Of a stretch of DNA of 64,000 nucleotides, positions 2,095 through 50,873 are shown one piece after another. The stretch lies in contig CAZTJD010000007.1 of assembly GCA_964613985.1 (NCBI GenBank), positions 15,507-79,506 of the forward strand, written 5' to 3'. Below the pieces are notes generated by a model. That model was not told the DNA's origin, searched no databases, and saw only the letters and a program-made list of their open reading frames with translations. Origin of the DNA: an uncultured Anaerolineales bacterium. GTDB lineage: Bacteria > Chloroflexota > Anaerolineae > Anaerolineales > UBA11858. How positions within the stretch are numbered: the first letter of the stretch is position 1; every line of letters starts with the position of its first letter. Position numbers and translations under genes: made by a program.

Positions 2095-2175
2095 TCGAAA
2101 ATCCCTGGTTTGGACAAAAAGTGGGCTTTTACTTTTTTTCACTCCATTCAATCTGCTTTCTAATACCCTCAATCT

Positions 2176-3362: not shown

Positions 3363-3468
3363 ACATTCCAAGCTTGTTGTGTTTTCTTGGTTTCCCCTTT
3401 CTTTACCAGTTCAGTAAATCATACCATATTATCCCACCAATTTTGTCCTTCTGGCAAAGGGATATTTC

Positions 3469-4239: not shown

Positions 4240-4490
4240 TGCTGCAGCAGAGGCAGTAGAACAGAACAATGAAATGGTGCAAACTAGAGAAAGGAGGTCA
4301 CCGGGGATTGCTATACTCATAAACAAGTCTTGTGTTGATTAGTTTATCCTTGGGAGGTAATAAACGTTTCCCATCGGGACTTAACAATTGGCCCTATCAA
4401 GAAGTTCCTTGATGACTGTAAATCATAAACGCATTGTGGAAGATTCTTGGTAGGTAAATCAGTATCAAGAAACAATTGGAGGAAAGAGTC

Positions 4491-4997: not shown

Positions 4998-5020
4998 AAA
5001 TCATTATTGAATAAGTATTT

Positions 5021-5113
5021 AAACCCGAAAGGTCTCATCTCACCCGTAATACAATAGAATACAGGAAAAATCCTTTAGAATAGTGACCGGGTCTGAAAAA
5101 GCCTTTCGGGTTT
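5021..5113. repeat. Intergenic inverted repeat / long hairpin
   Basis: AAACCCGAAAGG (5021-5032) pairs perfectly with CCTTTCGGGTTT (5102-5113). Inner pairing ACCCG/CGGGT. Confidence 0.75.
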
Positions 5114-5153
5114 CTATTAGATATTCTTCTACACAATTAAGAGGTTATGAAAG

Positions 5154-6026: not shown

Positions 6027-6880
6027 TGGAACCGATTATTGAAATCAAAGACTTGCACCATATCTATCCAAGTGGAACTCATGCCCTTCGTGGAATTAAC
6101 TTGAAAATTTATCCCAGTGAGTTTGTGGCGATCATCGGCCAAAACGGATCAGGTAAGACCACTTTTGTTAAGCACTTAAATGGCTTGCTAAGAGCAACGA
6201 AAGGGGAAGTCCTTATCAATGGTCAGGACGTACGCAGTCGAAAAGTTTCAGAAATGGCCCGGATTGTTGGCTATTGCTTCCAGAATCCAGACCACCAGAT
6301 CTTTTGCGATTCCGTTTATAAAGAAACCGCATACGGACCACAGAATCTGGGATTTTCTGCTGAAGAAATTAACAAGCGGGTAGACGAAGCTTTAGCTGCT
6401 GTTGGCATGTCCAACATGAAAGAATTTCATCCAAGAGATTTAAGTAAAGGGCAGCGACAAAGAGTCGCTGTTGCAGCTGTACTCTCAATGCATCCTCAAA
6501 TATTAAACATCGATGAGCCGACGACCGGGCAAGATTATCAGGATGGGATTGCAATGTTGGACCTGATTGCTAAATTGAATAAAATAGGACACACCATTCT
6601 CTTCATAACTCATGATATGCCAATGGTTGCCCGATATGCAAAACGCGTAATTGTTTTTCGCGAGGGAGAAGTTCTGCTCGATGGAACGACTGAAGAAGTA
6701 TTTCGGCAACGCGAGATATTACGAACAACTTTCCTTGCTCCACCTCAAATAACCAGCCTGGGGCTGGCGTTTCCTGATCTATATCCAAATGCTGTTCTAA
6801 GCGTATCCGATATGCTTGCACAAACGATGATGATTCTCAATAATCACAACCTTCAAAATACCAGCGGCAAGGAGGCTTAG
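6026..6880 (+). CDS. ecfA2: ECF transporter ATPase (EcfA')
   Basis: GQNGSGKT, FQNPDHQ, LSKGQRQR, IDEPTTGQD, ITHD. Confidence 0.9.
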   Translation: MEPIIEIKDLHHIYPSGTHALRGINLKIYPSEFVAIIGQNGSGKTTFVKHLNGLLRATKGEVLINGQDVRSRKVSEMARIVGYCFQNPDHQIFCDSVYKETAYGPQNLGFSAEEINKRVDEALAAVGMSNMKEFHPRDLSKGQRQRVAVAAVLSMHPQILNIDEPTTGQDYQDGIAMLDLIAKLNKIGHTILFITHDMPMVARYAKRVIVFREGEVLLDGTTEEVFRQREILRTTFLAPPQITSLGLAFPDLYPNAVLSVSDMLAQTMMILNNHNLQNTSGKEA

Positions 6881-6883
6881 TAT

Positions 6884-7696
6884 ATGTTGGAATATATTCA
6901 TCGAAATTCATTAATCCACAACCTCCACCCGCTGACTAAACTCTTCTGGGCTTTTGTGGTAATGATCCTATCGCTTGTTTTTAATAATCCTTGGTACCTT
7001 GGGGCGATTATCCTCACTGTAATCCTGGTTGGTTTTATAGGAAAAGTAGGCAAAGAAACCCTTGTTTACCTATCGGCGTTGATACTCGTTGCTATCTTTG
7101 TTTTTCTCTTTCAAATTTTATTCCGACCGGAAGGGAAATTACTGTTTACCGTTTTCCCCGCCTCATGGCCTGTAGTGGGAGGATGGCTACCGGTTACCGA
7201 TATGGGTCTTCGCTACGGATTTGCAATGAGTCTTCGCATGATTGGTCTGGTAAGCGTTCTCCCAGTTATCCTAACAACCACCCAACCGAGAGATATCGTC
7301 ATGGCACTGGTCGAAAATATTCATATTCCATATGATTATGCCTTCATGTTTACTACTGCGCTACGTTTTATGCCCATTATTTTATCGGAAGTCAGTACGA
7401 TTTCCCAGGCACAGCGATCTCGGGCTTACGCCACTGAAGGGTGGAATCCTATCCGGAAGCTAAAGGCTTTTGCACCTATCGCTTTGCCAATTGTTTTCAT
7501 TGCTATCGAAAAGGCAGACCGACTCGGCCTTTGCATGGAACTTCGCGGTTATGGTTCACCTAACCGTACTTACCTTAGGATGCTCAGTTTAAAATTTATT
7601 GATTGGGTAGCTATGGCTTTTATGATCCTGATTGTTGTTCTTTCCATTATTGCTTCGACTCATGGATATGGACGGATTCAATTGATTTCAATGTAA
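6884..7696 (+). CDS. ecfT: ECF transporter transmembrane T component
   Basis: LHPLTKL start, LRFMP, AQRSRA and MELRGY Arg motifs, multiple TM segments. Confidence 0.92.
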   Translation: MLEYIHRNSLIHNLHPLTKLFWAFVVMILSLVFNNPWYLGAIILTVILVGFIGKVGKETLVYLSALILVAIFVFLFQILFRPEGKLLFTVFPASWPVVGGWLPVTDMGLRYGFAMSLRMIGLVSVLPVILTTTQPRDIVMALVENIHIPYDYAFMFTTALRFMPIILSEVSTISQAQRSRAYATEGWNPIRKLKAFAPIALPIVFIAIEKADRLGLCMELRGYGSPNRTYLRMLSLKFIDWVAMAFMILIVVLSIIASTHGYGRIQLISM

Positions 7697-7747
7697 TAAT
7701 ATTTCCAGAACTACCAATATTCAACATCATTTGAGGAGATTACTATT

Positions 7748-9148
7748 ATGATGGAATTCCCTGACGTGGAACCCTACCGAATTAAAGTCGTCGAACCTAT
7801 GAAAGTGACCACCCGTGAGCAGCGTGCTCAAATTATGGCAGACGCTCACTACAACATTTTTAATATCCCAGCGGAAGATGTCTTTGTTGATCTGCTTACT
7901 GATAGCGGGACTTCAGCGATGAGTCAGAACCAATGGGCTGGGATAATGATCGGGGATGAGTCTTATGCTGGTTGCCGAAATTGGTTTCATTTAGAAGAGA
8001 CCGTCAAAGATATCACCGGGTATAAATTCGTTATCCCCACACACCAGGGAAGACCCGCAGAAAATATCCTCACCCTGATCCATATTCAACCGGGACTTTC
8101 AGCACTTGGAAATATGTTCTTTGACAGCACCCATGCCCATATTGAAACCAAAGGTGGTATTCCACTCGATTTGATCATAGATGAAGGACTGGATTCTGAG
8201 AGTGAATTTCCTTTCAAAGGCAATGTGGACATCGACAAGTTAGAAACCTATATCCAAAAACAGGGGGTTGAAAAAATCGCCATGATCCATGTAACTGTCA
8301 CCTGTAACAACAATGGTGGACAACCTGTTTCGATGGCTAATCTTCGCGCTCTTCGCGAGGTGGCGGATAAATACAACCTGCCATTCTTCCTTGATGCAGC
8401 TCGGTTCGCCGAAAATGCCTTTTTTATTAAGATGAGGGAGCCAGGCTACCAGGAAAAAACCATCAAAGAGATAACCAGGGAAATGTTTTCATTCGCTGAC
8501 GGCTGCACCATGAGTTCAAAGAAGGATGGTCTGGTCAATATTGGCGGGTTCTTAGCATTAAATGATGAGAAAAAATATCGGCTGGCCCAACAATATTTAA
8601 TCCTCATGGAGGGTTTCGTTACTTATGGGGGGATGGCAGGAAGAGATTTAGAAGCCCTGGCGATCGGTCTGAAAGAAGTCTTGGACCTCTCTTATCTGGC
8701 AAATCGAGTCCGTCAGACTCACTTGCTTGGCAACCAATTACTTGAAGCAGAAGTCCCTGTAGTGAAACCCATCGGTGGCCACTGTATTATGCTGGATATG
8801 AAGCATTTCTTACCTCATATTCCTCAGGAGCAGTTCCCATCTGAGGCTTTCGCGGCAGCATTATACATCGACTCCGGAACCCGCATCATAGGGCTCGGTC
8901 AGCTGGCTTTCGGAAGTGAAGATGCTGAAACCGGGAAAATAAATTACTCTCCATTAGAATTTGCCCGGTTAGCCATCCCTCGTAGGGTCTACACAGACAA
9001 CCACATGAATCTGGTTGCTCGCAGTGTCAAGAGCGTCTTTGAAACACGCGATCAGGTACCGGGCATGAGGATTGCATGGGCACCTCCCGTCCTACGACAC
9101 TTTACCGCTCATCTCGAACCAATCACCCCAAGTCCATTATTTGAATAA
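7748..9148 (+). CDS. tnaA: Tryptophanase (PLP beta-eliminating lyase)
   Basis: DLLTDSG, GDESYAG, SSKKD PLP lysine, YGGMAGRD, RLAIPRRVY. Tryptophanase-type rather than tyrosine phenol-lyase residues: NMFFD (Asp where TPL has Thr), no TPL Arg381, LRHFTA (His where TPL has Phe). Confidence 0.8.
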   Translation: MMEFPDVEPYRIKVVEPMKVTTREQRAQIMADAHYNIFNIPAEDVFVDLLTDSGTSAMSQNQWAGIMIGDESYAGCRNWFHLEETVKDITGYKFVIPTHQGRPAENILTLIHIQPGLSALGNMFFDSTHAHIETKGGIPLDLIIDEGLDSESEFPFKGNVDIDKLETYIQKQGVEKIAMIHVTVTCNNNGGQPVSMANLRALREVADKYNLPFFLDAARFAENAFFIKMREPGYQEKTIKEITREMFSFADGCTMSSKKDGLVNIGGFLALNDEKKYRLAQQYLILMEGFVTYGGMAGRDLEALAIGLKEVLDLSYLANRVRQTHLLGNQLLEAEVPVVKPIGGHCIMLDMKHFLPHIPQEQFPSEAFAAALYIDSGTRIIGLGQLAFGSEDAETGKINYSPLEFARLAIPRRVYTDNHMNLVARSVKSVFETRDQVPGMRIAWAPPVLRHFTAHLEPITPSPLFE

Positions 9149-9182
9149 TTGAAGAATATTGAATTTAGATGTAAGCAATAAG

Positions 9183-9228
9183 GGGATGTTTCTAAAGGAA
9201 TTTTACCTATGAAACATCCCTGTTTTTT
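9183..9228 (+). terminator. Intrinsic terminator after tnaA
   Basis: GGGATGTTTC...GAAACATCCC 10-bp stem followed by TGTTTTTT. Confidence 0.75.
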
Positions 9229-9279
9229 CCATCAACCCCAAACTACAAATCTCGAATTTACCCGCTCCACTAATTTAGT

Positions 9280-9303
9280 AAAACGGGATGTCTTTCCCGT
9301 TTT
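9280..9303 (-). terminator. Hairpin/terminator downstream of the VUT-family gene
   Basis: AAAACGGGA-TGTCTT-TCCCGTTTT perfect 9-bp stem with A/T runs at its base. Confidence 0.6.
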
Positions 9304-9324
9304 GCCGTAAGAGAAGCGACATTA

Positions 9325-9954
9325 TCAATCTTCATTTTCTATATTTCTTTCTTTCACCAAATAAATCCCTGGTAAACTCACCAATGTCGTCAAACCCTTG
9401 ACAATCAAATTACTGGTAAAGATCGACCACACCACTGCCCCAGGCATTGTCCCACCAAAAGCGATCCAAACAAAAATCAGGCTATCAACAGGGATACTAA
9501 CGCTGTTAGACACCAATACTCGTGCCCACTGATATTTGCGAGTCACTCTATCAACCCAGAGTTTATATCCCTCCGTGTCAATCATCTCCGCTATAACCTC
9601 TGCAATAATCGAAGCTATTACAATCCGCCAAATGGGTGAAAGTACCATCCCAAAGGCTTCCTGCGGACCAACCGACATATCCGCTGGTAATATCGATGTC
9701 AACCAAAACAATCCCGCCATTACCAGGTTAACCACTGCAGCGGTAATGATCAATGCTCGTGCCGCATTGATCCCTGCGGTCTTGTGTACCAGGTCCCTTA
9801 AAGTAAATGTAAATGGGTATACAAATGTACCGGCATCCATCGAAAAACCAGCCACTAAAATAATCCGTAGGCTGGCAATGTCAGCCATCATTTGGAATGC
9901 GATATAAGCAGCTGAGACTATTGTTGCTGGCACCATCGCCATTTTTCCCCACAA
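9325..9954 (-). CDS. Queuosine precursor transporter (VUT/YhhQ family); start uncertain
   Basis: YPFTFTLRDLV, RIVIASIIAEVIAEMID, RVLVSNSVSIPVDSLIF..AF.G motifs. Confidence 0.88.
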   Translation of the reverse strand: MWGKMAMVPATIVSAAYIAFQMMADIASLRIILVAGFSMDAGTFVYPFTFTLRDLVHKTAGINAARALIITAAVVNLVMAGLFWLTSILPADMSVGPQEAFGMVLSPIWRIVIASIIAEVIAEMIDTEGYKLWVDRVTRKYQWARVLVSNSVSIPVDSLIFVWIAFGGTMPGAVVWSIFTSNLIVKGLTTLVSLPGIYLVKERNIENED

Positions 9955-28373: not shown

Positions 28374-28498
28374 CAATATCTCAATCCCCCATTCAGCTGA
28401 ACCCTGACTTAACCATTAAAATGCGCGATTGCTTCTAATTCATACTGGTAATGGGCCATTCATGTTCGCCTTTGTAATCTAATTTTCTTTATTCGTGA

Positions 28499-37721: not shown

Positions 37722-37752
37722 AAAATCGCCCTAGATCACGGGCGATTTTTTT
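37722..37752. terminator. Bidirectional intrinsic terminator between cbpA-like gene and NRPS
   Basis: AAAATCGCCC-TAGATCAC-GGGCGATTTTTTT. Confidence 0.85.
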
Positions 37753-37805: not shown

Positions 37806-40800
37806 TTATTCAGTAGAAGACTCATCAAGAAGCTGATTTATTTTTTTTGCTAATGCTTCGACATCTGGTTTGGTGAATAAGGAAGAATGGTTCCCAGTTG
37901 TCCAAACAATTTCCACACCGACTGTTGAATATTCTTCCCAACCAAGCGTTGCTACTACTCCAGTATTCTCGATATCTTTTCGCTTCCAATCCCCGTAAAT
38001 CACATGAATCTTGCTAGGTAATGGCTGCGGTTTATAATTATTTGCATATTTCTGGTGGATTCGAACCAACTGCAATACACGTCCCATTGAGGAGGGGATG
38101 TTTAATTCTAAGAGATGTTTTTCTTGGTGCGCAAGTTCAGCAAAATCCGATCCCTGTAGGAATTCAGTTGTCATTGCAATACCTAGAATTCGATTAGCGA
38201 CCTGGGACAATTTGCGTTTTTTGTCTTCTGAAGACAATTTTCTTGATAGCATAAAATAAAAGCCGTTACGAAGATGGGGAATTATCGATTTTGAAACAGA
38301 AACAGTCCCTTTAAGTATCTTAAAGACCCTTGTGATTATTTGCTTCCATGAAGCGATCACCTTCTCGATTTTTCTCTGTGCTATATCTTCCTTTCGAACT
38401 GTAAATAAATCTGGTGGCTTCAGCCATGTATCAATAGCACCAAGGAAGGCGATTTTCTCCCCCTTTCGAATAAGGTTGTGAGCAATTTCAAAGACAAGGG
38501 TACCACCAAAAGACCAACCCGCAAGACGGTAGGGTCCTTTCGGTTGCACCTTTTGAATCCACCTGACATAATCTTCGGCCATTTCTTCAAGGGTAGAATA
38601 TGTAAGTTCATCGCTATAAACACTTGGATCCTGCAAACCGTAAATGGGTTGGTCATGCATATAAGGAACCAGATTGTAATACGGGAAAATAATTCCTCCA
38701 CCAGCATGGCCCAAAAACAATGGTGGTTTTGATCCCTTGGGTTGGATAGCTACAAGTGGCTGTGTTTGTTCCACAGTCAAGAAATGATTGGAGGTTTCTA
38801 CCTTATCTGGTAGATCTTCCCGGAGGTAACCTAACCTCTCAGCAATCTGCCAGGTTTTTTCTGCCAGGCAATCCCCACGGTAGGCTTCCTGCCAGCGATA
38901 GGCCCCTGACGCACTGATCCCCTCATGTTCAAAGAACCGTATATCCCCAATCATTTGTGATAACTCATGTAATGCCCCAGTCATCCTTTTCTCAGGATCA
39001 TCCTGTGGCTTTAGCATATCTTCGTGAATTTCGATCTCAAGGAATTCACAAACCTGCCCGATCACTTCTTCTGGCTTAGTGACCAATCCCTCATAACTCA
39101 CCCTCAGTTGTCTCTCCTCAGGTATTTCCTTCAAGAATCCTTCGATGTGCTCCTGGCTAATCGTCCAGATCGCCTCTGCCATTTCCTTTACTGTCAGGTG
39201 TGTCTCTCCCTTCAAGAACGGAGGGTAGAATACATGAAGCTTTGCCTTTTCAAACGATGGAATCATCGCATAGGGGTGCCTAATCAGATGAATGTACTTT
39301 ACATCTCGGAAGTTTTCCTCCATTCGTTGGAGCATGCTGGGGTCCAGAGCATAGTTAGGGGTCTTGTCCACAAACAACCGATCCCCTAACCAACTTTGCA
39401 TTTTCCCATAAAACGCCCTCACACTCATTCCCTCTTCTGCCCATCTCCCTAACGCTTTTCGCGCTTCTGCCTCACTCCAACCTCGTAAATTCATCAGGGC
39501 AACTACCACCCCATCTAGCCAGAAGCTGTCTCGCTCATTTGAAAAGGCTTCCTCCTGCTCCTTCAGAGTGTTATAGTTCATTAACTGCAACTCTGGCGGT
39601 GCAAATAACTTCGGATTGCCTCCTAACATTACTCTCAACAATGTCGATCCACTTCTTGGTGCACTCAGGATAAATACCGCTGGATCATTAATTGGCGCTT
39701 TCTCTTCCTCATCTCTTGGCGCCAGTTTTTTTACCATCCGTCTCAATCCATCAAAATCATCATCATTTATTCGTCTTATTACGGTTGTCCCCTGTTCAAC
39801 ATCTACTTCCTCTCCTAACAACCTTCTTACCCCTGTTGGATAGTTCTGCTCCAGGTAGGCACTTAATTTCTCAATCGTTGGTGCATCAAACAACGCTACC
39901 AGATAGAGATATTCCCCTAGTTCCTCCTGTAACCGGTTAATTAGCGTCGCTCCAAGCAACGAGTTTCCTCCAAGGTCGAAGAAGTTTGCCTTAACACTCA
40001 CCTCATCCTGCCCCAGCAACTCTCCCCATAACTCTGTTAGAACTTCCTCAAGTCTTGTCCTGGGACCAATATATCTTTCTCCTCTTGATAGCTCCGGTAT
40101 TGGGAGCCCTCTGCGGTCAATTTTGCCGTTCGGTGTCAGCGGGATTTTTTCCATCCATACATACGCTCCAGGTACCATGTAAGCCGGTAACCTCTTTCCC
40201 AATCTCTCGTTAAGGTCCTCCTCGATCCCTTCGTCCCCTACCAGATATGCTACCAACACCTTTACTCCAGGGATATCTTCCCTCAAAATTACCACCGCTT
40301 CTTTCACCCCATCTTCCTCCCTTAACACCGCCTCAATCTCGCCCAACTCGATCCGGTAACCCCTCAACTTCACCTGTTCATCTCTTCTACCTAAATATAT
40401 CAGGTTTCCATCTCCGAGGTACCTCACCATATCCCCTGTTCGGTATAGTTTTCCTTCTCCGCTAAACCGGTTCGTAACAAAAACCACCTCATTCTCCCCA
40501 TCCCGGTTCAGATATCCCGCGGTTACCCCGGCTCCTCCGATATACAACTCTCCAGGTAATCCGTCTGGTACCGGTTCGCCCCTTTCATCCAAAACGTAAA
40601 TCCGTACATTTGGTACAGGACGACCAATAGGAACGCGTGGATAAACGTAATTTTTACCCGGATAACACACTTCTTCAAACATCGTGGCGGTAACTGTAGT
40701 CTCAGTTGGACCATAGGCATTCAAAAACCTCATTGGCTTATTAAGCCGCTCCGACCAGATATGGAAGCTCATCAGGTTGACCTGTTCTCCCCCTAACAAT

Positions 40801-43800
40801 ATTAGCTTTAAGCTTTCTGGCACCTTTCTTTCCAGCCTCTCCATCTCATTAGCGGTATGGTGAAATACACTTGCTGGTAAGTGAAGATAATTAATCTTCT
40901 CTTCTTCAATAAAATCCAACAGACGGGCTCCTACCAACTCTGCAGGGGTTTTTGCAATCACGATCGTACCCCCATTCAATAGTGCCGGATAGATCCAATC
41001 TACAGCCCCATCAAAGGATATGGAAAAATATCCCAGAATTCGTTCACCTACTTCCATTCCCAGCCGACGCCTCATCCACCAGGCATGGTTTACAAGGTTC
41101 CTGTGCCTTACCTGTACACCTTTGGGAATTCCCGTAGTACCGCTGGTGTAGATGATATATACCAAGTCATCCCCAAAACTTCCTTTTTCAGGGTTATGGG
41201 GTGAGTTCCATCTTATCTCCTCAATATCACGATCCAGGCAAATGGCAGTCCCATCAAACCCTGGGATGTCTTTCAACAGGTCTTCCCTGGTTACCATGAA
41301 CCTTACCCCAGCATCCTCGATCATGAACTCAAGTCGTTTGATTGGATATCCCGGATCCATCGGGAGGTAAACGCCCCCTGCTTTCAGGATCCCCAATAAA
41401 CCTATCATCATTTCCAGGGATCGATCCAGGAATAATCCGACTACAATATTTTTCCTAACACCTTTCCTTATCAGCGTATGAGCCAATTGGTTGGCACGTT
41501 CATTTAATGCTGCATACGTGAGTTCATCACTATTGACTCGTAAAGCTATCGCTTGAGGTGTCTTCCTGACCTGTTCCTCCCACAATTCATGGATTCCCTG
41601 GTATTCTGGGTATGGTTCATTCGTTTCATTCCTCACATTGACCAGTTCATCACGCGCAGTTTCAGTTAGCAAAGGTATATGTGATATTGGTCGATCAGGA
41701 TTAGAGAGCAATCCTGATAACAGCTGTCTATAATGTAAATCTAAACGTTCAATGGTTTCTCTATCAAAGAGATCGGTATTGTAGCGAAATACACCTTGAA
41801 TCAGATCACCTGGTGCCTCGGTCAATGAAAGCATGAGATCAAGTCTCGCAACACCAAAATCGGGATGTAAGCCTTTCAGCACTAATCCAGGTAACTGAAG
41901 TTCACCAACATCTGCATTCTGAAACTGGAACCCAATCTGGAAAAGTGGATTCCTGCTGGAATCTTGTGCAGGATGCAGGTCTTCAACAATCATCTCAAAA
42001 GGTAATTCTTGGTAGTTGAAGGCATCCAATGCCATTTCTCGAACCCGTTCGAGCAGCTCTCGGAATGTCGGGTCACCAGAAAGGTCACCTCTCATTACAA
42101 GCATATTCACAAAGAAACCAATCAATCCCTCTGTCTCCATCCGCCCGCGGTTTGCGACAGGGGTTCCAACACTAATATCTGTTTCACCTGTATAGCGGTG
42201 TAAAAGGGCTAAATATCCTGCCAGGAAAATCATGAACAAGGTAGTATTAGTCTCTTTATTAAACGATTTCGCCATGCTAACATCACTAGCAGGAAGGGTT
42301 ATTACCTGTCGTTCACCTTTAAAGGTCTGTACGCGTGGCCTTACCCTTGCAGTTGGAAGTTCCAATGCTGGCGGAAGTGGAGTCAATTGGTTTCGCCAAT
42401 ATCTCATCTGGCTCTCTAAAACATCTCCCTTAAGATTACTACGTTGCCAGACTGCATAATCGACATATTGAATAGGTAACTCAGGTAAGTCGACGCTTTT
42501 ACCGTAGAGATGCGCTTCATAAGCCACCGAAAACTCCCGAATTAAAATTCCCAGTGACCAAGCATCAGATACAATGTGGTGTAATGTAATCAGGACAATA
42601 TGATCCTGATCCCCAACTTTTATCAACCTTACCCTGATTAGTGGACCATTCTCCAGATCAAACGGCTTATATACTTCCTCGGTTGTCAAACGATTTGCTT
42701 CTTCTTCACGATCATTTTCTGGCATCTCGGATAGATCAACAATTGGAATATCAAGTTTAAATGGAGGTTCTATCACTTGTACTGCATTTCCATCCACGAT
42801 AGGGAACCGCGTTCGTAGTACTTCATGTCGTTCGATGACGATATTTAAGCCCTTTTGAAAGGCTTCCAAATCAAGCTCACCGGCTAGTCGGAAAAAATTT
42901 GGAACATTGTAGATATACCCACTCGGTTCCAAGCGATGCATATACCACAATCTCCATTGGGCAAAAGAAAGTGGTAGATAACCTTCCCTAGAAACAGATT
43001 TGATCTTTAAGGCTTCCTCGTCATCCCCTTTAATAGTTTCCCCAAGCAATCTTCTCACTCCCAGAGGATGCTTCTCTTCCAAATACAGGCTTAAAGAATA
43101 AATGGTTGGTTTTTCAAAAATGGTGACCATTTTTACGTTTTCGCCAAGTTGCCCCTTTAGCCTGTTGATGAAGGTAGCACCAAGTAAGGAGTTTCCTCCC
43201 AATTCAAAGAAGTTCGCCTGTACACTGATCTCTTCCACCCCAAGTAATTCCGCCCACATCGCTGTAAGGTGGATCTCCAAGGGTGTTTGGGCTGGAACGA
43301 ATATTTCTCCAGTCTGAATATCCGGTACTGGCAGCCTTTCTCGATCAATTTTCCCATTTTGTGTCAGAGGTAATTCTTCCAACCATACATAAACACCCGG
43401 GATCATATAAACTGGTAAACGATCAGCAAGATATTGATGAAATATTTCTTTGGATACGCCTTCTTCATCTCCTACCAGGTAAGCTACCAGTTGTTTCACA
43501 CCTGGCACATCTTCTCTAAGCAACACAACTGCATCATGTACTTGTGGATGGGTTCGTAAAGCGTTTTCAATTTCTCTTAACTCAATACGATAACCTCGAA
43601 GTTTTACCTGGTCATCTGCGCGTCCCAGGAATAATAAATTCCCATCGGGCAGAAAACGCGCGATATCCCCAGTCCGATACATAAATGCATTTTCCTTTTC
43701 ATTAAAAGGATCCGGAAGGAATGACCCATTGGTCTGTTCAGGTTGATGTAGATACCCCGCAGTGACACTTTCACCACCAATATAGATCTCCCCAGGAAGA

Positions 43801-46800
43801 CCAATAGGTACAGGCTTTTTATTTTTATCTAGCAAATAGATTCGTACATTGGGGATTGGTTTTCCAATCGGTATCCTAGATTTTGGGAGTTCAGCCTCAG
43901 GGCTACTAATCATCTCATACAAAGTCGCTGTACAGGTGTTTTCAGTGGGTCCATACGCGTTTATGAATCGGACGGGTTTTTCGACTCGGTTCGACCATGA
44001 TAGAAGCCGATCCAATTCTAAAGGTTCCGCACCTACATGGACAAATTTCAAACAATCTGGTACTTTCACGTCTAGTCGATCCATCTCCATTACGGACTGA
44101 TGGAACACACTTGCAACCATATGGATGTAGTTTATCTGCTCCTTTTCTATGAATTCCAAGAGACTCGTCCCCACTAATTCAGTTGGATCCTTATGCATTA
44201 CAATTGTCCCACCACTCATTAATATTGGGAGAATCTCCTCAAAAGAAGGATCGAATGTGATTGTTGTAAATTGCAGCATTCGATCCCCTTCCTGGATTTG
44301 GTATATATTATTAATCCCAAAGATGTTATTCTTTAAATTGCGTTGCCTGACCATGACCCCTTTGGGGGAACCTGTCGTCCCAGAAGTATAAACAATGTAT
44401 GCTAAATCCTCCTCGTCCAATTCTACCTGGAGATTCGATCGATCATACTCCCGGAATTCTGCATCTTCCCTGTCGAGGACAATCTTCTCCCCTTCATATT
44501 TCTCAACCGCCCCGAAATTACTCTCTTGAGTTAACAAATAACCAGCGTTTGTATCATTCATCATGAACAAGATCCGATCACTAGGATATCTAGGATCCAA
44601 CGGCAAAAATACGCCTCCAGCTTTCATGATTCCCAACATCCCGACAATCATCTCCAATGATCGCTTCACACATAGTCCGACAACTTTATTTGCCCTCACT
44701 CCCTTCTCTACCAGGTAATGGGCTAACTGGTTTGCTTGTTCATTCAGCCCCCGATAGCTCAGTTCTTCCCCCTCTAGTTTTACTGCTACCAAGTCCGGCG
44801 TACGATCAACCTGTGCCTCGATTAAACTTATCACCCCTTGCTGTGAGGGATATATAACCCTTGTCTCGTTCCACTGTACCAACTGTTCAAATAACTCTTC
44901 TTCCCCCATGATCTCCAATTCGCTTAACTTTGCCTCCGGATTTTCCAGCACTTCTTCTAATAGCTTGAGATAATGCCTACCCATACGTTCTATTGTCCAT
45001 GAACTATACAGATCCGTATTGTACTCAAGTGTTCCTTTTATCTTTCCTGCATCCCCTTCAGTCATCGACAACATCAAATCCAACCTTGCCGCACTGAAGT
45101 CACTATCAATTTCTTCAAACCTCAAACCTTTAAGCTTCAGTTCGCCCACCTCCACATTCTGGTACTGGAATCCCACATCGAAGATCGGGTTGCGACTCGA
45201 ATCTCTTACTGGTTGTAATACATCTACTAACATCTCAAAAGGCAATTCCTGGTGCTCATACGACCTTAGAGACATTTCCCGGATCCTTTGTAAAAGCTCT
45301 AGAAAACTGGGGTCTCCACTTAGGTCCCCTCTCATCGCCAACATATTCACAAAGAAACCGATCAATCCTTCCGTCTCTGTTCTCCCACGGTTAGCAGCTG
45401 GTGTTCCCACACAAATATCCTCTTCGCCCGAATAACGTTGCAAGAGGACCATAAATGCTGCCAATAAAACCATGAAGAAGGTCGTATCTGTTTTACGATT
45501 TAGCTTCTTAGCCATCCCAGCGATTTTTGCTGGTAGTTCGATCTTATGTTGGTCCCCTTTGAATGTTTGAACTCGCGGTCGAACTGTGGCAGTTGGTATC
45601 TCTAAAACTGGTGGCAACGGTGTTAACTGGTTTTGCCAATATCGTATATGGCTATCTAGTACATCACCCTGTAGGTATTCTCGCTGCCAGACCGAATAAT
45701 CAACATACTGGATAGGCAAATCTGGTAATGTCACCTCTCTACCTTCGAGAAATGATCCATATAAGGAGGCAAACTCTCGCACAAAGATGCCAATTGACCA
45801 TGCATCAGCAACAATATGGTGCAAGCTCAAGAGGATGATATGAGTATTCTCTGCTTCTTTGATTAGCTTAACCCGAATCAAGGGACCGGTCGACAAATCA
45901 AATGGTGTCATGGCTTCTTCCGAAGCAATTTGTTTTGCTTTTGATGATCGTTGCTCTTCTGATAAGTCTGTCAAATCGATCAAGGGGATTTCCAGGTTAA
46001 ATGGAGGATCAATGACTTGTATAGGGTTGCCATCCACGATTGAGAATCGCGTCCGCAGTATCTCATGTCTTTGAATGATCGTTTCCAGGCTGCTTTGTAG
46101 CGCCTTTATATCAAGCTCTCCCACTAATCGGAACGACCCGGGCATATTGTAAGTTGACCCCCCCGGTTCCAGTTGATTCATGAACCAAAGCCGCTGTTGA
46201 GCAAATGATAAGGGAAGGTTCCTTTCTCTTGATACTGGTTGAATCTCGAAACCACCTCTACCTGCTTCTAATATGGGAAGATCTTCTCTCCAATATCCGA
46301 GCCTCTCCGCTATCTGCCAGGTTATTTCAGTCAGATAATCCCCACGATAGCCTTCCTGCCAACGGTACGCTCCTGACGCACTGATCCCTTCATGCTCAAA
46401 GAAGCGTACATCTCCAACCATACGCGATAACTCGTGCAATGCCCCTGTCATTCGCTTCCGCGGGTCTTTTTGAGGATATAACATGTCGTCGTGGAACTCG
46501 ATCTCTAGGAACTCACAAATTTCGTTAATCACTTCCTCAGGTCTGGTCACCAACGCCTCATAACTCACCCGAAGTTGTCTTTCCTTTGGTATTCCTCTCA
46601 GGAAACTCTCAATGTGCTCCTGGCTGATCGTCCAGATCGCCTCTGCCATCTCCCTAACGGTTAAGTTTGTATCTTCCTCTAAGAACGGGGGATAAAATAC
46701 ATGTAGCTTTGCTTTCTCAAATGAAGGTATCATTCCGTAAGGATGTCTAACCAGGTGGATGTACTTCGCTTCTTGGAAATCTTCTTCTATCCGTTTTAAC

Positions 46801-49800
46801 ATCCCAGGATCCAGGGCGTAGTTCGGGGTCTTATCTACAAACAATCGTTCCCCCAACCATGCCTGCATCTGTCCGTAAAACGCCCTTACACTCATCCTCT
46901 CTTCTGCCCAACGCTTTAAGGCTTCCCGAGCTTCAACCTCACTCCAACCTTGCAAGTTCATCAAGGCCATCACCACCCCATCCAACCAAAAGCTGTCACG
47001 CTCATTCGCAAATGCTTCTGCCTGTTCTTTAAGGTTGTTATAGTTCATCAACTGCAGTTCTGGCGGTGCAAACAATTCCGGGTTTCCGCCTAGAATCGCC
47101 CTCAACAGGGTAGATCCACTCCTTGGTGCACTTAAAATAAATGTTGCTGGTGTATTAACTGGCGCTTCTTCCTGCTTTCTTGGAACCAGTTTTTTCACCT
47201 TCTCCTTCAAACCTTCAATGTCCCCCCGTCTCATTCGCTTCATTAACGCAACCCCCTGGCTTATATCCAATTCTTCTCCTAACATCCTACCCACACCTAC
47301 CGGGTAGTTCTCTTCAAGGTAGACTCCCAGCTCCTCAATAGTCGGTGCATCAAACAGTGCTATCAGGTATAGATATTCCCCTAGTTTCGCTTGAAGCCGG
47401 TTGATAAAGGTAGCTCCTAATAACGAGTTACCGCCCAGATCAAAGAAATTCGCCTTGACACTCACTTCCTCCAGACCAAGCAGGTCACCCCACATCTCCG
47501 CTAAGAGTTCCTCTAATCTAGTTCTTGGTTTTACGTATGTTTCCCATCCTTCCATCACTGGCGCTGGCAACCCTTTACGATTAATTTTGCCATTCGGTGT
47601 CAGGGGTATTTCATCAAGTCTGACAAACGCTCCCGGCACCATGTATCCAGGTAACCTTTCCCCCAACTTCTCAATGAGTTCTTCTTCATCCACCTCTTCG
47701 CCTACCAGGTATGCCACCAGAATCTTCACCCCTGGCATATCTTCCCTCAACATCACTACGGCTTCTTCCACCCCTTTCTGCTCTCTCAAGACCGCCTCGA
47801 TCTCGCCCAACTCGATCCGATATCCCCTCAACTTCACTTGTTCGTCTCTCCTCCCTAAATAAACCAGGTTCCCATCTGGGAGAAGTTTAACTATGTCCCC
47901 GGTCCGGTATAGGTTCCCATCTCCTTCGAACCGGTCCATAACAAATGCCAGCTCGTTCTCATCTTCACGGTTATGGTACCCGGCAGATACCCCTGCCCCT
48001 CCAATGTACAATTCTCCTGGCAATCCTATCGGTACCGGTTCACCCCTTTCATTTAATACATAAACCCGTACATTCCCGAGAGGTTTCCCGATTGGAATCC
48101 GCTCCTTCCCTACCTCTCCCCCCGGCTCTAAGTTCAACGCGTAGGTTGTTGCCGTGATTGACGCTTCCGTCGGACCATACGCATTCACAAATAACATGGG
48201 TTGCCTTAATCGTTCTGTCCATCCTCTTAACCTATCTACCTCTACCTGCTCTCCTCCTACCAGTACCAACTTCAAACTCTCAGGCACCTTCAACTCCTGC
48301 CGTTCCATCTCGATAACTGTCTGGTGCCACACACTTACAGGTAGGTGTAAGTAATTGATATCATTATCCTCTATCTTCATCAGTAGGCTCATCCCTACCA
48401 ACTCTGCTGGATTTTCTACCACCACCACTGTCCCACCCTTCAACAATACTGGGAAGATGCTTTCCAGTGAAGCATCAAAAGAAATCGATATGTATTGCAA
48501 CATCCGGCCCCCTGCCTCGATCCCCAACCTTTTACCCATCTCCAAGGCATGGTTCACAAGGTTTTTATGTCTTACTGTGACGCCTTTTGGTATCCCTGTC
48601 GTACCGCTGGTGTAGATAAGATAGGCTAAATCTTCTCCACTGACTGTAACCCCAGGGTTCTCGACATTTTCCTGAGCGATCTCTATTTGTTCCCTATCCA
48701 GCACTACTATCTTTCCCCTATATTCTGGCAATCCGCTCACGAATTCTTCTTCTGTGATTAAAATCCCAGCACCAGAATCTTCCAACATCAACGCTAGGCG
48801 CTCTTTTGGATAGGTTGGATCCATTGGCAAGAATACCCCACCCGCTTTCATGATCCCCAATAATCCCACCACCATATCTACCGAACGTCCAACACAAAAA
48901 CCTACCACTTCACCGGGTTTAACGCCAACCTTCTTGAGATAATTCGCCAACTGGTTTGCACGTTCATTTAATTCGAGGAAGCTTAGTTCTTTCTCACCGT
49001 CCAATACAGCTGTTATTCGCGGGGATTTCTTCACCTGCTCTTCTAACAATTCATGAATCCCTCTCGCTGACGGGTAGACCGAACTTGTTTGATTCCAATT
49101 ATGTAATTGCTGATAAAGTTCTTCTTTGGAAACCAAGGGGATTTCAGCAATCTTTGCCTTGGGATCCGTAATAGCCTCATTGAGGAATCTCAAATAATAC
49201 CTTGCAAAGAGTTCAACTGTTTCACTTTTGAACAAATTCGTGCTGTATTCCATCCAACCATGAATTCCGAACTCGGATTCAATCAGGCTGATAGCTAAAT
49301 CAACAATGCTTTTCTTCGGATCGATCATTACTGGTGAAACATTGATCTCGGGTCCTTCATTCTCCGGCATCGGCCAATTCTGAAAGACAAACATGGTCTG
49401 ATACAACGAGGATCTCGCGAGATCTCGATCAGGATTTACCTCTTCTACAATCTTTGTAAACGGTATCTCCTGGTTTCGTAAACCCATCCACACATTAGAC
49501 TGGGTGTAATCTAATAATTCCTCAAAAGTTAGTTGATCATTAAGTCGTGTCCTAAGAGCCAACGTATTGATAAACAATCCCACCAGATTTCTTGTTTTTC
49601 GACCCTTACGTCCTGCTGTTGGAATACCAACAATAATATCGTCTTGACCTGTTAGTTGATATAGAAACCCTTTGTATGCCGCTAATAATACAGAAAACAG
49701 CGTAACACCATATTCACTGGTTACTTTTCTCAGCGAATCGAGCATCTCCTGCGGTATGATTAGAGGCACCCTCGCGCCATCCGTATTTTGTACTCTACTT

Positions 49801-50501
49801 TTTGGAAAATCACTGGGAAAATTCAAAACAGGTAATTCCCCCGCCAGTTTTTCTTTCCAATAGTTCAATTGTTTCTGCAGTTTCTCTTCTTGCTGACTTA
49901 AGTGATATTGTTCTAAATATTCCGAATATTGAATGCCGATCTCAGGTAGATCGGGGGCTTCATTCTTGACCCTCGCTTGATACATTTTCATAAAATCTTT
50001 AAAAATCACTCCCGCAGACCAACCATCTGAAATAATGTGGTGCATGGGAACTGAAATTATGTATTCAGTTTCAGCAAGTTTTATTAGAACAGTTCGAACC
50101 AAGGGACCTTTATTAAGGTCAAAGGGCTTTCTTGCCTCTTCAGCAGCAAGTTTTAAACCTTCTCTTTCCCTATTTTTTAAATCAATATGGTTCAAATCAT
50201 AAAATGTGAAATCGAGATCATTTTTCGAATGAACAACCTGCTTTGGTTCCCCATTAATGGTTGTTATCGTAGTTCGTAGACTCTCATGCCGCTCAATAAT
50301 ATCCTGGAAACAAATTCTAACAATTTCTGGATCTACGGGGGTATTAATCTTCAAAACTAGATCTGTAATGTGATTCGTGGGAGAATTAGGATTCAGCTGT
50401 TCAAGAAGCCACATTTGCTTCTGAGTATTTGTAAGCTCGAGCAATTTCTCTTCTAACATTTTTGATCCTTCATCTGAGATATTGGATTCGTCTGGTTCCA
50501 T
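37806..50501 (-). CDS. Trimodular NRPS with two embedded sulfotransferase domains: C-A-T-ST-C-A-T-C-A-T-ST-TE (4231 aa; alternative start 50459)
   Basis: Three C domains (HHIISDG, HHIVADA, HHIVSDA). Three A domains (YTSGTTGxPKG, NAYGPTE, YRTGD, NGK). Three T domains (all FFxLGGNSL). Two ST domains (SAPRSGSTLLR, RHPYxMIPS). TE (GWSFG, GAID, GNH). An AAGGA RBS 6 nt before the ATG at 50459 suggests that start. Confidence 0.97.
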   Translation of the reverse strand: MEPDESNISDEGSKMLEEKLLELTNTQKQMWLLEQLNPNSPTNHITDLVLKINTPVDPEIVRICFQDIIERHESLRTTITTINGEPKQVVHSKNDLDFTFYDLNHIDLKNREREGLKLAAEEARKPFDLNKGPLVRTVLIKLAETEYIISVPMHHIISDGWSAGVIFKDFMKMYQARVKNEAPDLPEIGIQYSEYLEQYHLSQQEEKLQKQLNYWKEKLAGELPVLNFPSDFPKSRVQNTDGARVPLIIPQEMLDSLRKVTSEYGVTLFSVLLAAYKGFLYQLTGQDDIIVGIPTAGRKGRKTRNLVGLFINTLALRTRLNDQLTFEELLDYTQSNVWMGLRNQEIPFTKIVEEVNPDRDLARSSLYQTMFVFQNWPMPENEGPEINVSPVMIDPKKSIVDLAISLIESEFGIHGWMEYSTNLFKSETVELFARYYLRFLNEAITDPKAKIAEIPLVSKEELYQQLHNWNQTSSVYPSARGIHELLEEQVKKSPRITAVLDGEKELSFLELNERANQLANYLKKVGVKPGEVVGFCVGRSVDMVVGLLGIMKAGGVFLPMDPTYPKERLALMLEDSGAGILITEEEFVSGLPEYRGKIVVLDREQIEIAQENVENPGVTVSGEDLAYLIYTSGTTGIPKGVTVRHKNLVNHALEMGKRLGIEAGGRMLQYISISFDASLESIFPVLLKGGTVVVVENPAELVGMSLLMKIEDNDINYLHLPVSVWHQTVIEMERQELKVPESLKLVLVGGEQVEVDRLRGWTERLRQPMLFVNAYGPTEASITATTYALNLEPGGEVGKERIPIGKPLGNVRVYVLNERGEPVPIGLPGELYIGGAGVSAGYHNREDENELAFVMDRFEGDGNLYRTGDIVKLLPDGNLVYLGRRDEQVKLRGYRIELGEIEAVLREQKGVEEAVVMLREDMPGVKILVAYLVGEEVDEEELIEKLGERLPGYMVPGAFVRLDEIPLTPNGKINRKGLPAPVMEGWETYVKPRTRLEELLAEMWGDLLGLEEVSVKANFFDLGGNSLLGATFINRLQAKLGEYLYLIALFDAPTIEELGVYLEENYPVGVGRMLGEELDISQGVALMKRMRRGDIEGLKEKVKKLVPRKQEEAPVNTPATFILSAPRSGSTLLRAILGGNPELFAPPELQLMNYNNLKEQAEAFANERDSFWLDGVVMALMNLQGWSEVEAREALKRWAEERMSVRAFYGQMQAWLGERLFVDKTPNYALDPGMLKRIEEDFQEAKYIHLVRHPYGMIPSFEKAKLHVFYPPFLEEDTNLTVREMAEAIWTISQEHIESFLRGIPKERQLRVSYEALVTRPEEVINEICEFLEIEFHDDMLYPQKDPRKRMTGALHELSRMVGDVRFFEHEGISASGAYRWQEGYRGDYLTEITWQIAERLGYWREDLPILEAGRGGFEIQPVSRERNLPLSFAQQRLWFMNQLEPGGSTYNMPGSFRLVGELDIKALQSSLETIIQRHEILRTRFSIVDGNPIQVIDPPFNLEIPLIDLTDLSEEQRSSKAKQIASEEAMTPFDLSTGPLIRVKLIKEAENTHIILLSLHHIVADAWSIGIFVREFASLYGSFLEGREVTLPDLPIQYVDYSVWQREYLQGDVLDSHIRYWQNQLTPLPPVLEIPTATVRPRVQTFKGDQHKIELPAKIAGMAKKLNRKTDTTFFMVLLAAFMVLLQRYSGEEDICVGTPAANRGRTETEGLIGFFVNMLAMRGDLSGDPSFLELLQRIREMSLRSYEHQELPFEMLVDVLQPVRDSSRNPIFDVGFQYQNVEVGELKLKGLRFEEIDSDFSAARLDLMLSMTEGDAGKIKGTLEYNTDLYSSWTIERMGRHYLKLLEEVLENPEAKLSELEIMGEEELFEQLVQWNETRVIYPSQQGVISLIEAQVDRTPDLVAVKLEGEELSYRGLNEQANQLAHYLVEKGVRANKVVGLCVKRSLEMIVGMLGIMKAGGVFLPLDPRYPSDRILFMMNDTNAGYLLTQESNFGAVEKYEGEKIVLDREDAEFREYDRSNLQVELDEEDLAYIVYTSGTTGSPKGVMVRQRNLKNNIFGINNIYQIQEGDRMLQFTTITFDPSFEEILPILMSGGTIVMHKDPTELVGTSLLEFIEKEQINYIHMVASVFHQSVMEMDRLDVKVPDCLKFVHVGAEPLELDRLLSWSNRVEKPVRFINAYGPTENTCTATLYEMISSPEAELPKSRIPIGKPIPNVRIYLLDKNKKPVPIGLPGEIYIGGESVTAGYLHQPEQTNGSFLPDPFNEKENAFMYRTGDIARFLPDGNLLFLGRADDQVKLRGYRIELREIENALRTHPQVHDAVVLLREDVPGVKQLVAYLVGDEEGVSKEIFHQYLADRLPVYMIPGVYVWLEELPLTQNGKIDRERLPVPDIQTGEIFVPAQTPLEIHLTAMWAELLGVEEISVQANFFELGGNSLLGATFINRLKGQLGENVKMVTIFEKPTIYSLSLYLEEKHPLGVRRLLGETIKGDDEEALKIKSVSREGYLPLSFAQWRLWYMHRLEPSGYIYNVPNFFRLAGELDLEAFQKGLNIVIERHEVLRTRFPIVDGNAVQVIEPPFKLDIPIVDLSEMPENDREEEANRLTTEEVYKPFDLENGPLIRVRLIKVGDQDHIVLITLHHIVSDAWSLGILIREFSVAYEAHLYGKSVDLPELPIQYVDYAVWQRSNLKGDVLESQMRYWRNQLTPLPPALELPTARVRPRVQTFKGERQVITLPASDVSMAKSFNKETNTTLFMIFLAGYLALLHRYTGETDISVGTPVANRGRMETEGLIGFFVNMLVMRGDLSGDPTFRELLERVREMALDAFNYQELPFEMIVEDLHPAQDSSRNPLFQIGFQFQNADVGELQLPGLVLKGLHPDFGVARLDLMLSLTEAPGDLIQGVFRYNTDLFDRETIERLDLHYRQLLSGLLSNPDRPISHIPLLTETARDELVNVRNETNEPYPEYQGIHELWEEQVRKTPQAIALRVNSDELTYAALNERANQLAHTLIRKGVRKNIVVGLFLDRSLEMMIGLLGILKAGGVYLPMDPGYPIKRLEFMIEDAGVRFMVTREDLLKDIPGFDGTAICLDRDIEEIRWNSPHNPEKGSFGDDLVYIIYTSGTTGIPKGVQVRHRNLVNHAWWMRRRLGMEVGERILGYFSISFDGAVDWIYPALLNGGTIVIAKTPAELVGARLLDFIEEEKINYLHLPASVFHHTANEMERLERKVPESLKLILLGGEQVNLMSFHIWSERLNKPMRFLNAYGPTETTVTATMFEEVCYPGKNYVYPRVPIGRPVPNVRIYVLDERGEPVPDGLPGELYIGGAGVTAGYLNRDGENEVVFVTNRFSGEGKLYRTGDMVRYLGDGNLIYLGRRDEQVKLRGYRIELGEIEAVLREEDGVKEAVVILREDIPGVKVLVAYLVGDEGIEEDLNERLGKRLPAYMVPGAYVWMEKIPLTPNGKIDRRGLPIPELSRGERYIGPRTRLEEVLTELWGELLGQDEVSVKANFFDLGGNSLLGATLINRLQEELGEYLYLVALFDAPTIEKLSAYLEQNYPTGVRRLLGEEVDVEQGTTVIRRINDDDFDGLRRMVKKLAPRDEEEKAPINDPAVFILSAPRSGSTLLRVMLGGNPKLFAPPELQLMNYNTLKEQEEAFSNERDSFWLDGVVVALMNLRGWSEAEARKALGRWAEEGMSVRAFYGKMQSWLGDRLFVDKTPNYALDPSMLQRMEENFRDVKYIHLIRHPYAMIPSFEKAKLHVFYPPFLKGETHLTVKEMAEAIWTISQEHIEGFLKEIPEERQLRVSYEGLVTKPEEVIGQVCEFLEIEIHEDMLKPQDDPEKRMTGALHELSQMIGDIRFFEHEGISASGAYRWQEAYRGDCLAEKTWQIAERLGYLREDLPDKVETSNHFLTVEQTQPLVAIQPKGSKPPLFLGHAGGGIIFPYYNLVPYMHDQPIYGLQDPSVYSDELTYSTLEEMAEDYVRWIQKVQPKGPYRLAGWSFGGTLVFEIAHNLIRKGEKIAFLGAIDTWLKPPDLFTVRKEDIAQRKIEKVIASWKQIITRVFKILKGTVSVSKSIIPHLRNGFYFMLSRKLSSEDKKRKLSQVANRILGIAMTTEFLQGSDFAELAHQEKHLLELNIPSSMGRVLQLVRIHQKYANNYKPQPLPSKIHVIYGDWKRKDIENTGVVATLGWEEYSTVGVEIVWTTGNHSSLFTKPDVEALAKKINQLLDESSTE
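38826..39674 (-). other. NRPS sulfotransferase domain ST2 (between T3 and TE)
   Basis: FILSAPRSGSTLLR 5'-PSB loop, APPEL, VDKTP, RHPYAMIPS 3'-PB motif. Confidence 0.93.
46293..47141 (-). other. NRPS sulfotransferase domain ST1 (between T1 and C2)
   Basis: Same motifs as ST2. Gapless hand alignment with ST2 gives 233/283 identical residues (~82%). Confidence 0.93.
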
Positions 50502-50601: not shown

Positions 50602-50873
50602 AAATTTACTAAGACATAGCATTAGTGCATCAATTAACAATCGCCATCCCTTTTCCCCCTGATACAGATAGGAAATTTTACAATTTGAACTCATTGAGAA
50701 ACAAAGTATCCGTTCTTGTTCAATGATTTCCGGGATTCGATAGAAAATATCTATGTTAAATACATACACTCAAAAAATTATGAGTGCCTTCCCTAGTCTA
50801 CCAGAAAAAGGATATCAGTCAATGTTATATGCGGTTAATAATCGCTGGAAATCTGAATTGATTTAATTGTAAT

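Follow-up and report, generated by a model that had tools for sequence, protein, structure and literature searches.

We analyzed a stretch of 64,000 nucleotides, hereafter the window, from an uncultured Anaerolineales bacterium (positions 15,507 to 79,506 of the forward strand of contig CAZTJD010000007.1, assembly GCA_964613985.1). A single open reading frame of 4231 amino acids with an ATG start (37806..50501, minus strand) encodes a nonribosomal peptide synthetase (NRPS) that carries two sulfotransferase (ST) domains within its own chain, both predicted to use 3'-phosphoadenosine-5'-phosphosulfate (PAPS). Pfam finds three Condensation, three AMP-binding with AMP-binding_C, three PP-binding, two Sulfotransfer_3 (PF13469, E 1.3e-59) and one Thioesterase domain in the protein, and no ketosynthase (KS), acyltransferase (AT) or ketoreductase (KR) domain. 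Segmentation by phmmer with the protein's own domains gives the order C-A-T-ST-C-A-T-C-A-T-ST-TE (C, condensation; A, adenylation; T, carrier; TE, thioesterase), the same order as had been read from the letters in the initial annotation. The characteristic motifs are found at residues 154, 1561 and 2641 (HHxxxD), 1023, 2435 and 3511 (GGNSL), 1126 and 3615 (PRSGST) and 3995 (GWSFGG). The features of the gene and its immediate flanks are:

37806..50501, minus: whole NRPS gene, C-A-T-ST-C-A-T-C-A-T-ST-TE, 4231 amino acids
49092..50444, minus: C1, N-terminal condensation domain (HHIISDGWS), at most 39% identical to the family's other C domains
47547..49064, minus: A1, Stachelhaus code DAEHLGAITK, 9/10 to the catalogued Arg code DAEDLGAITK
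47292..47519, minus: T1, carrier domain with GGNSL and Ser1026 (Pfam, motif)
46272..47174, minus: ST1, predicted PAPS sulfotransferase of the NRPS-embedded clade, 'DAEH' subclade (homology, model, tree)
44877..46229, minus: C2 (HHIVADAWS), sister of C3 (tree, motif)
43317..44834, minus: A2, code DPEHHGACTK, 7/10 to the Arg code DGEDHGAVTK
43062..43289, minus: T2, carrier domain with no ST after it (motif, segmentation)
41637..42989, minus: C3 (HHIVSDAWS; motif, segmentation)
40077..41594, minus: A3, code DGDHLGAVTK, 7/10 to the Arg codes DGEDHGAVTK and DADDSGAVTK
39822..40049, minus: T3, carrier domain (motif, segmentation)
38802..39704, minus: ST2, 81% identical to ST1, ratio of nonsynonymous to synonymous substitution rates (dN/dS) 0.022 against ST1
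37827..38744, minus: TE, NRPS thioesterase of type I whose nucleophile is Ser (GWSFGG); among solved structures the NocB TE is its best relative
50795..50822, minus: promoter-like site within the 372-nt gap that precedes the NRPS gene, a consensus match only
37722..37749, no strand: two-way terminator-like hairpin between the NRPS gene and a convergent DnaJ-like gene

The gene is not an assembly artefact. The stretch is present in at least 12 salt-marsh metagenome runs, Logan contigs of four of these separate runs tile the NRPS gene at 99% identity or more without indels or joints, and one Logan contig of 2383 nt alone covers the end of A1, T1, ST1 and C2. We also note that the stretch after T2 (...YLEE.HP.GV.RLLGE) is the same as the start of the T-ST linkers behind T1 and T3 and then leads directly into C3, which is compatible with the loss of an ST from module 2.

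Fold, selection and phylogeny of the sulfotransferases

Both ST domains are predicted PAPS sulfotransferases of the fold of CurM and the olefin synthases (OLS). Among solved STs, ST1 matches those of CurM (E 4.9e-53) and OLS (E 3.6e-48), the next matches being tyrosylprotein sulfotransferases at about 1e-4, and an AlphaFold2 model of the ST (pLDDT 83.3) is matched by Foldseek to 4gbm with E 7e-24 and TM scores of 0.83/0.90, and has TM scores of 0.82/0.92 against 4gox. The PAPS-binding motifs had been described as intact, and an alignment of 11 STs bears this out: the PRSG.T loop, PPEL (P41 P42 E43 L44), DK and RHP....S are all invariant. The Glu of PPEL is reportedly the catalytic base, according to the paper on the CurM ST structure.

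The two copies, 81% identical to one another, are saturated at synonymous sites and have a dN/dS of 0.022, below the values for the A pair (0.15) and the C pair (0.07). The low dN/dS together with the saturated dS means that both copies have been kept working for a long time; ST1 and ST2 are old duplicates under strong purifying selection.

The phylogeny was analyzed with FastTree on 166 STs and with IQ-TREE on 82. In both trees every NRPS-embedded ST is separated with support 100 from the STs of polyketide synthases (PKSs), which form one clade of four: CurM, OLS, a PKS ST encoded on contig C146 of the window's own genome, and one from an Anaerolineae metagenome-assembled genome (MAG), G001. 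The earlier assignment of ST1 and ST2 to the CurM/OLS group is therefore right as to family but wrong as to clade. Cyanobacterial proteins of the layout [~970 aa]-T-ST-C-A-T-C, which we take by their layout to be FkbH glycerate loaders, form a clade (99) nested in the NRPS-ST radiation. The window's STs are sisters, and belong to a subclade (support 97-100) found only behind A domains with a code of the DAEH type. The same tendency holds for the family as a whole, in which ST subclades track the code of the upstream A domain with 34 label changes, against 93.6 when the labels are shuffled. The C domains that follow STs are scattered over the C tree (63 changes for 130), with C2 sister to C3, and a special post-ST condensation type was rejected on these grounds.

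The DAEH-linked STs, a set of 16 sequences of which seven were added from genome loci, also have signature residues of their own. Fixed differences from the STs behind Ser, Thr and Tyr modules are A1125, Q1150, D1174, F1221, H1267, V1268, a YPP insertion at 1270-1272, Y1314, Q1344 and R1366; position 1150 is Q in the DAEH STs, H in the PKS STs and E elsewhere.

None of 40 relatives of the organism (24 of the same family, 16 of the same order) has an ST of the window's type, and any NRPS C domain is found in only seven of them. The own genome holds further NRPS fragments and, on contig C146, a second ST line. Judged from these distributions, the NRPS was likely acquired by horizontal transfer.

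Contig C146 (L009 1-10415) carries a FAAL gene (834..2606, minus strand) and a PKS of 2016 amino acids (3453..9503, plus strand), followed by an NRPS that begins with a C domain and is cut by the contig end. The PKS has the layout ACP-KS-AT-KR-ACP-ST (ACP, acyl carrier protein), as does the PKS heading a cluster on contig C49 of G001, and its ST is the one that groups with CurM/OLS.

A recurrent module and its known counterparts

More than 1500 long proteins were obtained when the T1-ST1-C2 stretch was used as the query. Of the 120 best homologues nearly all contain C-A-T-ST, one to three times per protein, and many have a T-ST-TE end; an exhaustive search of cluster representatives gave 1026 clusters at E<=1e-30, mostly within multidomain proteins and mainly NRPSs. 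The named sources of such modules include Thermoanaerobaculia and other Acidobacteriota, Pyrinomonadaceae, Blastocatellia, Herpetosiphonaceae, Calditrichota, Cytophagia and Planctomycetaceae, and further Thalassomonas sp. RHCl1 and a Pseudoalteromonas MAG. The C-A-T-ST unit is thus a recurrent module of uncultured bacteria and its layout is common, so that the impression of an unseen or rare architecture in the initial annotation did not survive. The STs nearest to the window's are those of Caldilineae and Anaerolineae MAGs (60-61% identical) and of Calditrichota and Cytophagia MAGs (52-58%), and the nearest STs overall (50-61%) likewise stand behind a DAEH-type A code.

A search of the literature in full text found no paper on C-A-T-ST elongation modules. 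The in-cis STs that it returned are only the FkbH-PCP-ST glycerate loaders (PCP, peptidyl carrier protein) AerB, DysB and OciA and the PKS ACP-ST-TE units, the remaining returns being stand-alone STs, and the A-code strings of the window occur in no paper of the searched literature. Sulfated nonribosomal peptides are scarce among known compounds, yet this type of ST module is present in more than 1000 sequence clusters. The uncharacterised modules of Acidobacteriota, Calditrichota, Cytophagia, Herpetosiphonaceae, Thalassomonas and Pseudoalteromonas are of the same type as those in the window, but most of them lie within multi-gene lipopeptide lines, with 86% of the STs behind Ser/Thr/Tyr modules, whereas the window has a lone gene in which all three modules are Arg-like by their codes.

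Among the closest characterized counterparts are OciA (cyanopeptolin/oscillapeptin), AerB (suomilide, varlaxin) and DysB (dysinosin), in which the ST also stands in cis between a carrier and a C domain; the internal T-ST-C junction already exists in these FkbH-PCP-ST-C loaders. Nostoc and related cyanobacteria encode STs about 45% identical to those of the window, in the [~970 aa]-T-ST-C-A-T-C layout and in the same NRPS-embedded clade. The oci cluster of Planktothrix, with an ST and glyceric-acid loading domains, leads to cyanopeptolins whose side chain is HO3SO-CH2-CH(OMe)-CO (PMC2533009), i.e., the sulfate stays in the product. The acceptor in OciA, AerB and DysB is glyceric acid, loaded by FkbH at the start of the line, whereas those of the window are part of ordinary C-A-T modules, for elongation and termination, in which the A domains are Arg-like; they belong to a different subclade and have their own signature residues. 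No stretch of the window's NRPS is large enough for an FkbH domain.

The STs of CurM (curacin A) and OLS (4gbm, 4gox) have the same fold and the same PAPS-binding and catalytic residues as those of the window, and they too stand behind a carrier, with a TE following as it follows ST2. They sulfate a KR-made beta-hydroxyacyl group, which makes it a leaving group (PMC5577590). The window's line differs in having no KR, in the separate clade of its STs (support 100) and in its NocB-like TE: the best matches of this TE are NocB, SkyXY (7crn), AB3403 (4zxh) and EntF, with neither the CurM TE nor the SulM TE among the matches. An ST of the PKS type is present in the same genome, but elsewhere, on contig C146.

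SulN and SulM of sulfazecin synthesis offer a parallel, in that a peptide still bound to its carrier is sulfonated from PAPS directly ahead of its release by the TE, as proposed below for the window. The acceptor of SulN is the side-chain nitrogen of carrier-bound diaminopropionic acid (Dap), a precedent for N-sulfonation (PMC11298585). SulN, which we compared by description only, is however a separate protein, the Dap code is DVWEMNADDK, and the TE is a Cys enzyme that forms a beta-lactam, none of which applies to the window's line.

The loaded residue and the acceptor atom

Stachelhaus codes were extracted from 491 A domains. Ser/Thr/Tyr codes account for 132/153 (86%) of the ST-linked A domains and for 39/282 of those without an ST (Fisher p 3e-52, which is not a true probability given that the sequences are related). 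Such codes before an ST are of the types Thr (DFWNIGMVHK type), Ser (DVWHxSLVDK) and Tyr (DASTVAAVCK and others). Tyr-coded modules precede 28 STs, eight of them at T-ST-TE ends, which makes a general leaving-group role hard to reconcile with the family. The pattern amounts to a testable rule, that the ST subclade matches the residue of its own module (Ser, Thr, Tyr, glycerate, or here Arg-/Lys-like).

The codes of the window are DAEHLGAITK (A1), DPEHHGACTK (A2) and DGDHLGAVTK (A3), the same being obtained by eye from the motifs, and the two upstream of the STs, A1 and A3, are not of the Ser/Thr/Tyr type. The A domains ahead of both STs retain D235 and K517. A 2025 catalogue, built from the codes of characterised assembly lines, gives the Arg consensus D-[AV]-E-D-[IVL]-G-A-[VI]-[TD]-K, with entries such as DAEDLGAITK (VarF/Var3), DAEDIGAITK (PvdI) and DAENIGAITK (PMC12283262). 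The code of A1 departs from the first of these solely at position 278 (H for D), which is occupied by N, S, E, F or L in further Arg codes of the catalogue. Compared with A1, the closest Lys and Gln codes agree at 6-7/10, and A2 and A3 each match Arg codes at 7/10. The code DVENAGVVTK, at first taken for an Arg code, proved to be that of the Ahp (3-amino-6-hydroxypiperidone) position in oci and was dropped.

A1, A2 and A3 are monophyletic (100), which implies that the NRPS grew by triplication of one module, and they fall within a 24-member 'DAEH' clade (99) that is itself surrounded by codes acidic at position 239. On this sequence evidence the three A domains are a triplicated lineage of predicted Arg type. 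The window is a compact test case, with one gene and three near-identical modules, two with an ST and one without, and with no need of a hydroxylase. Its peculiarity, as predicted from codes, searches and trees, is the combination of Arg-like modules, no TauD/P450 hydroxylase and a dedicated ST subclade.

Two other proteins of the family, P0078 and P0081 (L106 10001-20275), have the layout C-A-T-ST-T-ST-C-A-T-C, with two carrier-ST pairs in tandem after one A domain. Their code, DAEDIGTIVK, is 9/10 to catalogued Lys codes, which suggests a double sulfonation of one Lys-like residue, and the two STs of the tandem are very divergent from one another and from the remaining family.

What atom would accept the sulfonate depends on whether a hydroxyl is supplied. 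Searches for the TauD and P450 families, both positive in control genomes, gave no match in the own genome (G000) nor in four genomes with DAEH-ST modules (G001-G004), and cover these two families only, other hydroxylase families not having been searched. The clusters of the nearest relatives (L012, L013 and the one on contig C49 of G001) consist only of PKS/NRPS genes, a MacAB-like exporter and a fusion of a type II thioesterase (TEII) with a phosphopantetheinyl transferase (PPTase), without precursor-supply or hydroxylase genes. Specifically, the G001 cluster comprises the exporter, the ACP-KS-AT-KR-ACP-ST PKS, C-A(Tyr)-T-ST, C-A(DAEHLGAITK)-T-ST, C-x-A(Lys-like)-T-TE and the TEII-PPTase fusion. 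These two negatives make it probable that the sulfonate goes to a group which the loaded residue has from the start, and for an Arg-like residue this would be a side-chain nitrogen.

A different arrangement is seen in Thalassomonas sp. RHCl1, a cultured strain, where two TauD genes (L105 23109-26384) lie directly behind an NRPS carrying two ST modules; the A code of these modules, DIPRVGHVGK, is Asp/Asn-like. This arrangement fits hydroxylation followed by sulfation. Behind the TauD pair lie genes for an aminotransferase and a MacAB-like exporter. In the G001 cluster, a triple-ST lipopeptide cluster, the TEII-PPTase fusion (12941-14632, minus strand; L099) is the end gene; it encodes 563 amino acids, by our reading a type II thioesterase (GHSMGA) joined to an Sfp-type PPTase.

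If the STs of the window sulfonate the residues of their own modules, N-sulfonation (of the guanidino group or another side-chain nitrogen) and O-sulfonation of a hydroxyl come out nearly balanced, and we lean only slightly to the former, for want of a TauD or P450 gene in the genome. A more specific proposal, to which we give a minority share of our confidence, is that the 'DAEH' ST subclade consists of N-sulfotransferases that would turn carrier-bound Arg, or a close analogue (citrulline, for example), into a residue with an N-sulfo-guanidino or sulfo-ureido group. If true, a polycationic Arg tripeptide would become zwitterionic or anionic without any oxygen-dependent step, in an anaerobe of sulfate-rich sediment. 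It would also be a new on-line tailoring in NRPSs, a new enzyme chemistry and a new type of peptide residue, and the same chemistry would extend to about 16 homologous modules in MAGs of Chloroflexota, Calditrichota and Cytophagia. If the acceptor is a hydroxyl instead, either an oxygen-independent source of that hydroxyl or an error in the predicted A substrate must be sought.

Fate of the sulfonate and genome setting

The account we prefer, and hold at slightly better than even, is that this transferred and triplicated single-gene NRPS would sulfonate, in cis, the first and third residues of an Arg-like tripeptide, with both sulfonates retained. In this scheme C1 would accept an acyl donor, or no donor, and A1, A2 and A3 would load three arginine-like residues. 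ST1, acting on residue 1 on T1, and ST2, acting on residue 3 on T3, would transfer a sulfonate from PAPS to the side chain of their own modules; C2 and C3 would elongate the chain in the usual way, and the NocB-like Ser-TE would release the tripeptide with both sulfonates in place. That each ST acts on the residue of its own module is what we infer from the way in which ST clade and A code vary together in the family, and retention of the sulfonate would follow from the clade that the window's STs share with the glycerate STs. An in-cis, twice-sulfating line, as put forward in the initial annotation, still appears to be the best reading, in view of the dN/dS of the STs and of the genes for an APS (adenosine 5'-phosphosulfate) kinase on contig C72, a PPTase of Sfp size (238 amino acids) on contig C26 and AcpS on contig C2 of the same genome. 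It had been missed there that the A domains are Arg-like and do not make up hydroxy-amino-acid modules, and the 'disulfated tripeptide' named as the probable product therefore obscures the question of which atom would be sulfonated.

Several points weigh against this account. No donor for C1 is visible, the gene is flanked by neither a transporter nor a regulator, and no RNA run carries it. The Arg call depends on a 10-residue code, and the change from D to H at 278 affects a charge-bearing position and is conserved across the 24-member clade, so that the A domains may in fact load an analogue of Arg, for instance citrulline, or another substrate altogether. The DAEH-clade STs are without two acidic residues of the Ser/Thr/Tyr STs (Q in place of E at 1150, H in place of D/E at 1267), a loss that makes a cationic acceptor unexpected. 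The search for a hydroxylase covers TauD and P450 only. To our knowledge there is no case of PAPS-dependent guanidine N-sulfonation on an NRPS.

Alternatively, the STs could act on something other than the side chain of their own module, for example the beta-hydroxyl of an N-acyl chain delivered by C1 or a hydroxyl placed on the carrier-bound residue by a hydroxylase encoded elsewhere, which we consider unlikely. In its favour, the same genome has the FAAL and the ACP-KS-AT-KR-ACP-ST PKS of contig C146, but that PKS has a downstream NRPS of its own, and ST2 at module 3 is distant from any N-acyl group. The Thalassomonas cluster does couple ST modules with TauD genes, whereas no TauD or P450 match was found here nor in the four genomes with the same module type. 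The joint variation of ST clade and A code within a module speaks for a target on that module.

A slightly lower probability goes to leaving-group chemistry as in CurM, with the sulfate installed only to be eliminated, so that module 1 would end up with a dehydro residue or a ring, the chain would leave T3-ST2-TE by decarboxylation or elimination, and the product would be free of sulfate. Fold and catalytic residues are indeed common to these STs and those of CurM/OLS, and T-ST-TE resembles the ACP-ST-TE unit, for which a mechanism has been described (PMC5577590). Nevertheless, the support of 100 for the split places the window's STs with the NRPS clade and apart from the activating PKS STs, and the TE is NocB-like, the CurM TE not being among its matches. 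Beta-elimination is impossible for the 28 STs on Tyr-coded modules, including the eight at T-ST-TE ends; the C domains after STs, C2 and its sister C3 included, form no special clade; and Arg-like residues have no beta-hydroxyl, nor does the genome have a TauD or P450 gene to make one.

We regard as about equally improbable that the gene is a silent or decaying orphan, i.e., a transferred gene with no partner genes and no product in this organism. The label 'orphan' is itself fair: the neighbours are all housekeeping genes, upstream pheA, ilvE, leuB, cimA/leuA, leuCD and ilvCNBD, downstream the convergent DnaJ-like gene, tex and a gene for aldehyde:ferredoxin oxidoreductase (AOR), and there is no transporter, regulator, MbtH or PPTase gene beside the NRPS. 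The absence of a C1 donor and of RNA runs with the gene, and of the ST type from 40/40 relatives, would also suit a silent gene. Decay, however, would hardly leave a 12.7-kb frame fully open with all core motifs intact, a dN/dS of 0.022 for the ST duplicates and of 0.07-0.15 for the C and A pairs, a promoter-like site and a terminator-like hairpin of the gene's own, and recurrence at 99% identity or more in several separate samples.

A sulfazecin-like route, in which ST2 would N-sulfonate a terminal diamino acid and the TE close a beta-lactam, has its model in SulN, which sulfonates carrier-bound Dap before cyclisation by the SulM TE, and in predicted relatives drawn with sulfotransferase domains (PMC11298585), but it is very improbable and was rejected, as the A3 code DGDHLGAVTK is unlike the catalogued Dap codes (DVWEMNADDK, DIWEINTDDK and the like), the nucleophile of the window's TE (GWSFGG) is Ser rather than Cys, and the SulM TE is not among that TE's sequence matches.

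The contig from which the window was taken is 85 kb long and belongs to a genome of 4.5 Mb that is 95% complete. Its origin in Chloroflexota, as assumed from the letters, is upheld by the tex gene product, whose named homologues are from Chloroflexota, Anaerolineae and Caldilineaceae, the best match being only 71% identical. Genes for a ferritin-like protein, rubrerythrin and aldehyde:ferredoxin oxidoreductase lie at 27119-30627 of the window; together with the genome-wide absence of TauD/P450 matches they fit an anaerobic lifestyle. Elsewhere in the genome, contigs C1, C8, C14, C101 and C167 each encode an A domain 24-33% identical to those of the window with a TE-like stretch about 300 nt further on, and these loci look like small NRPS-like genes of the A-T-TE type.

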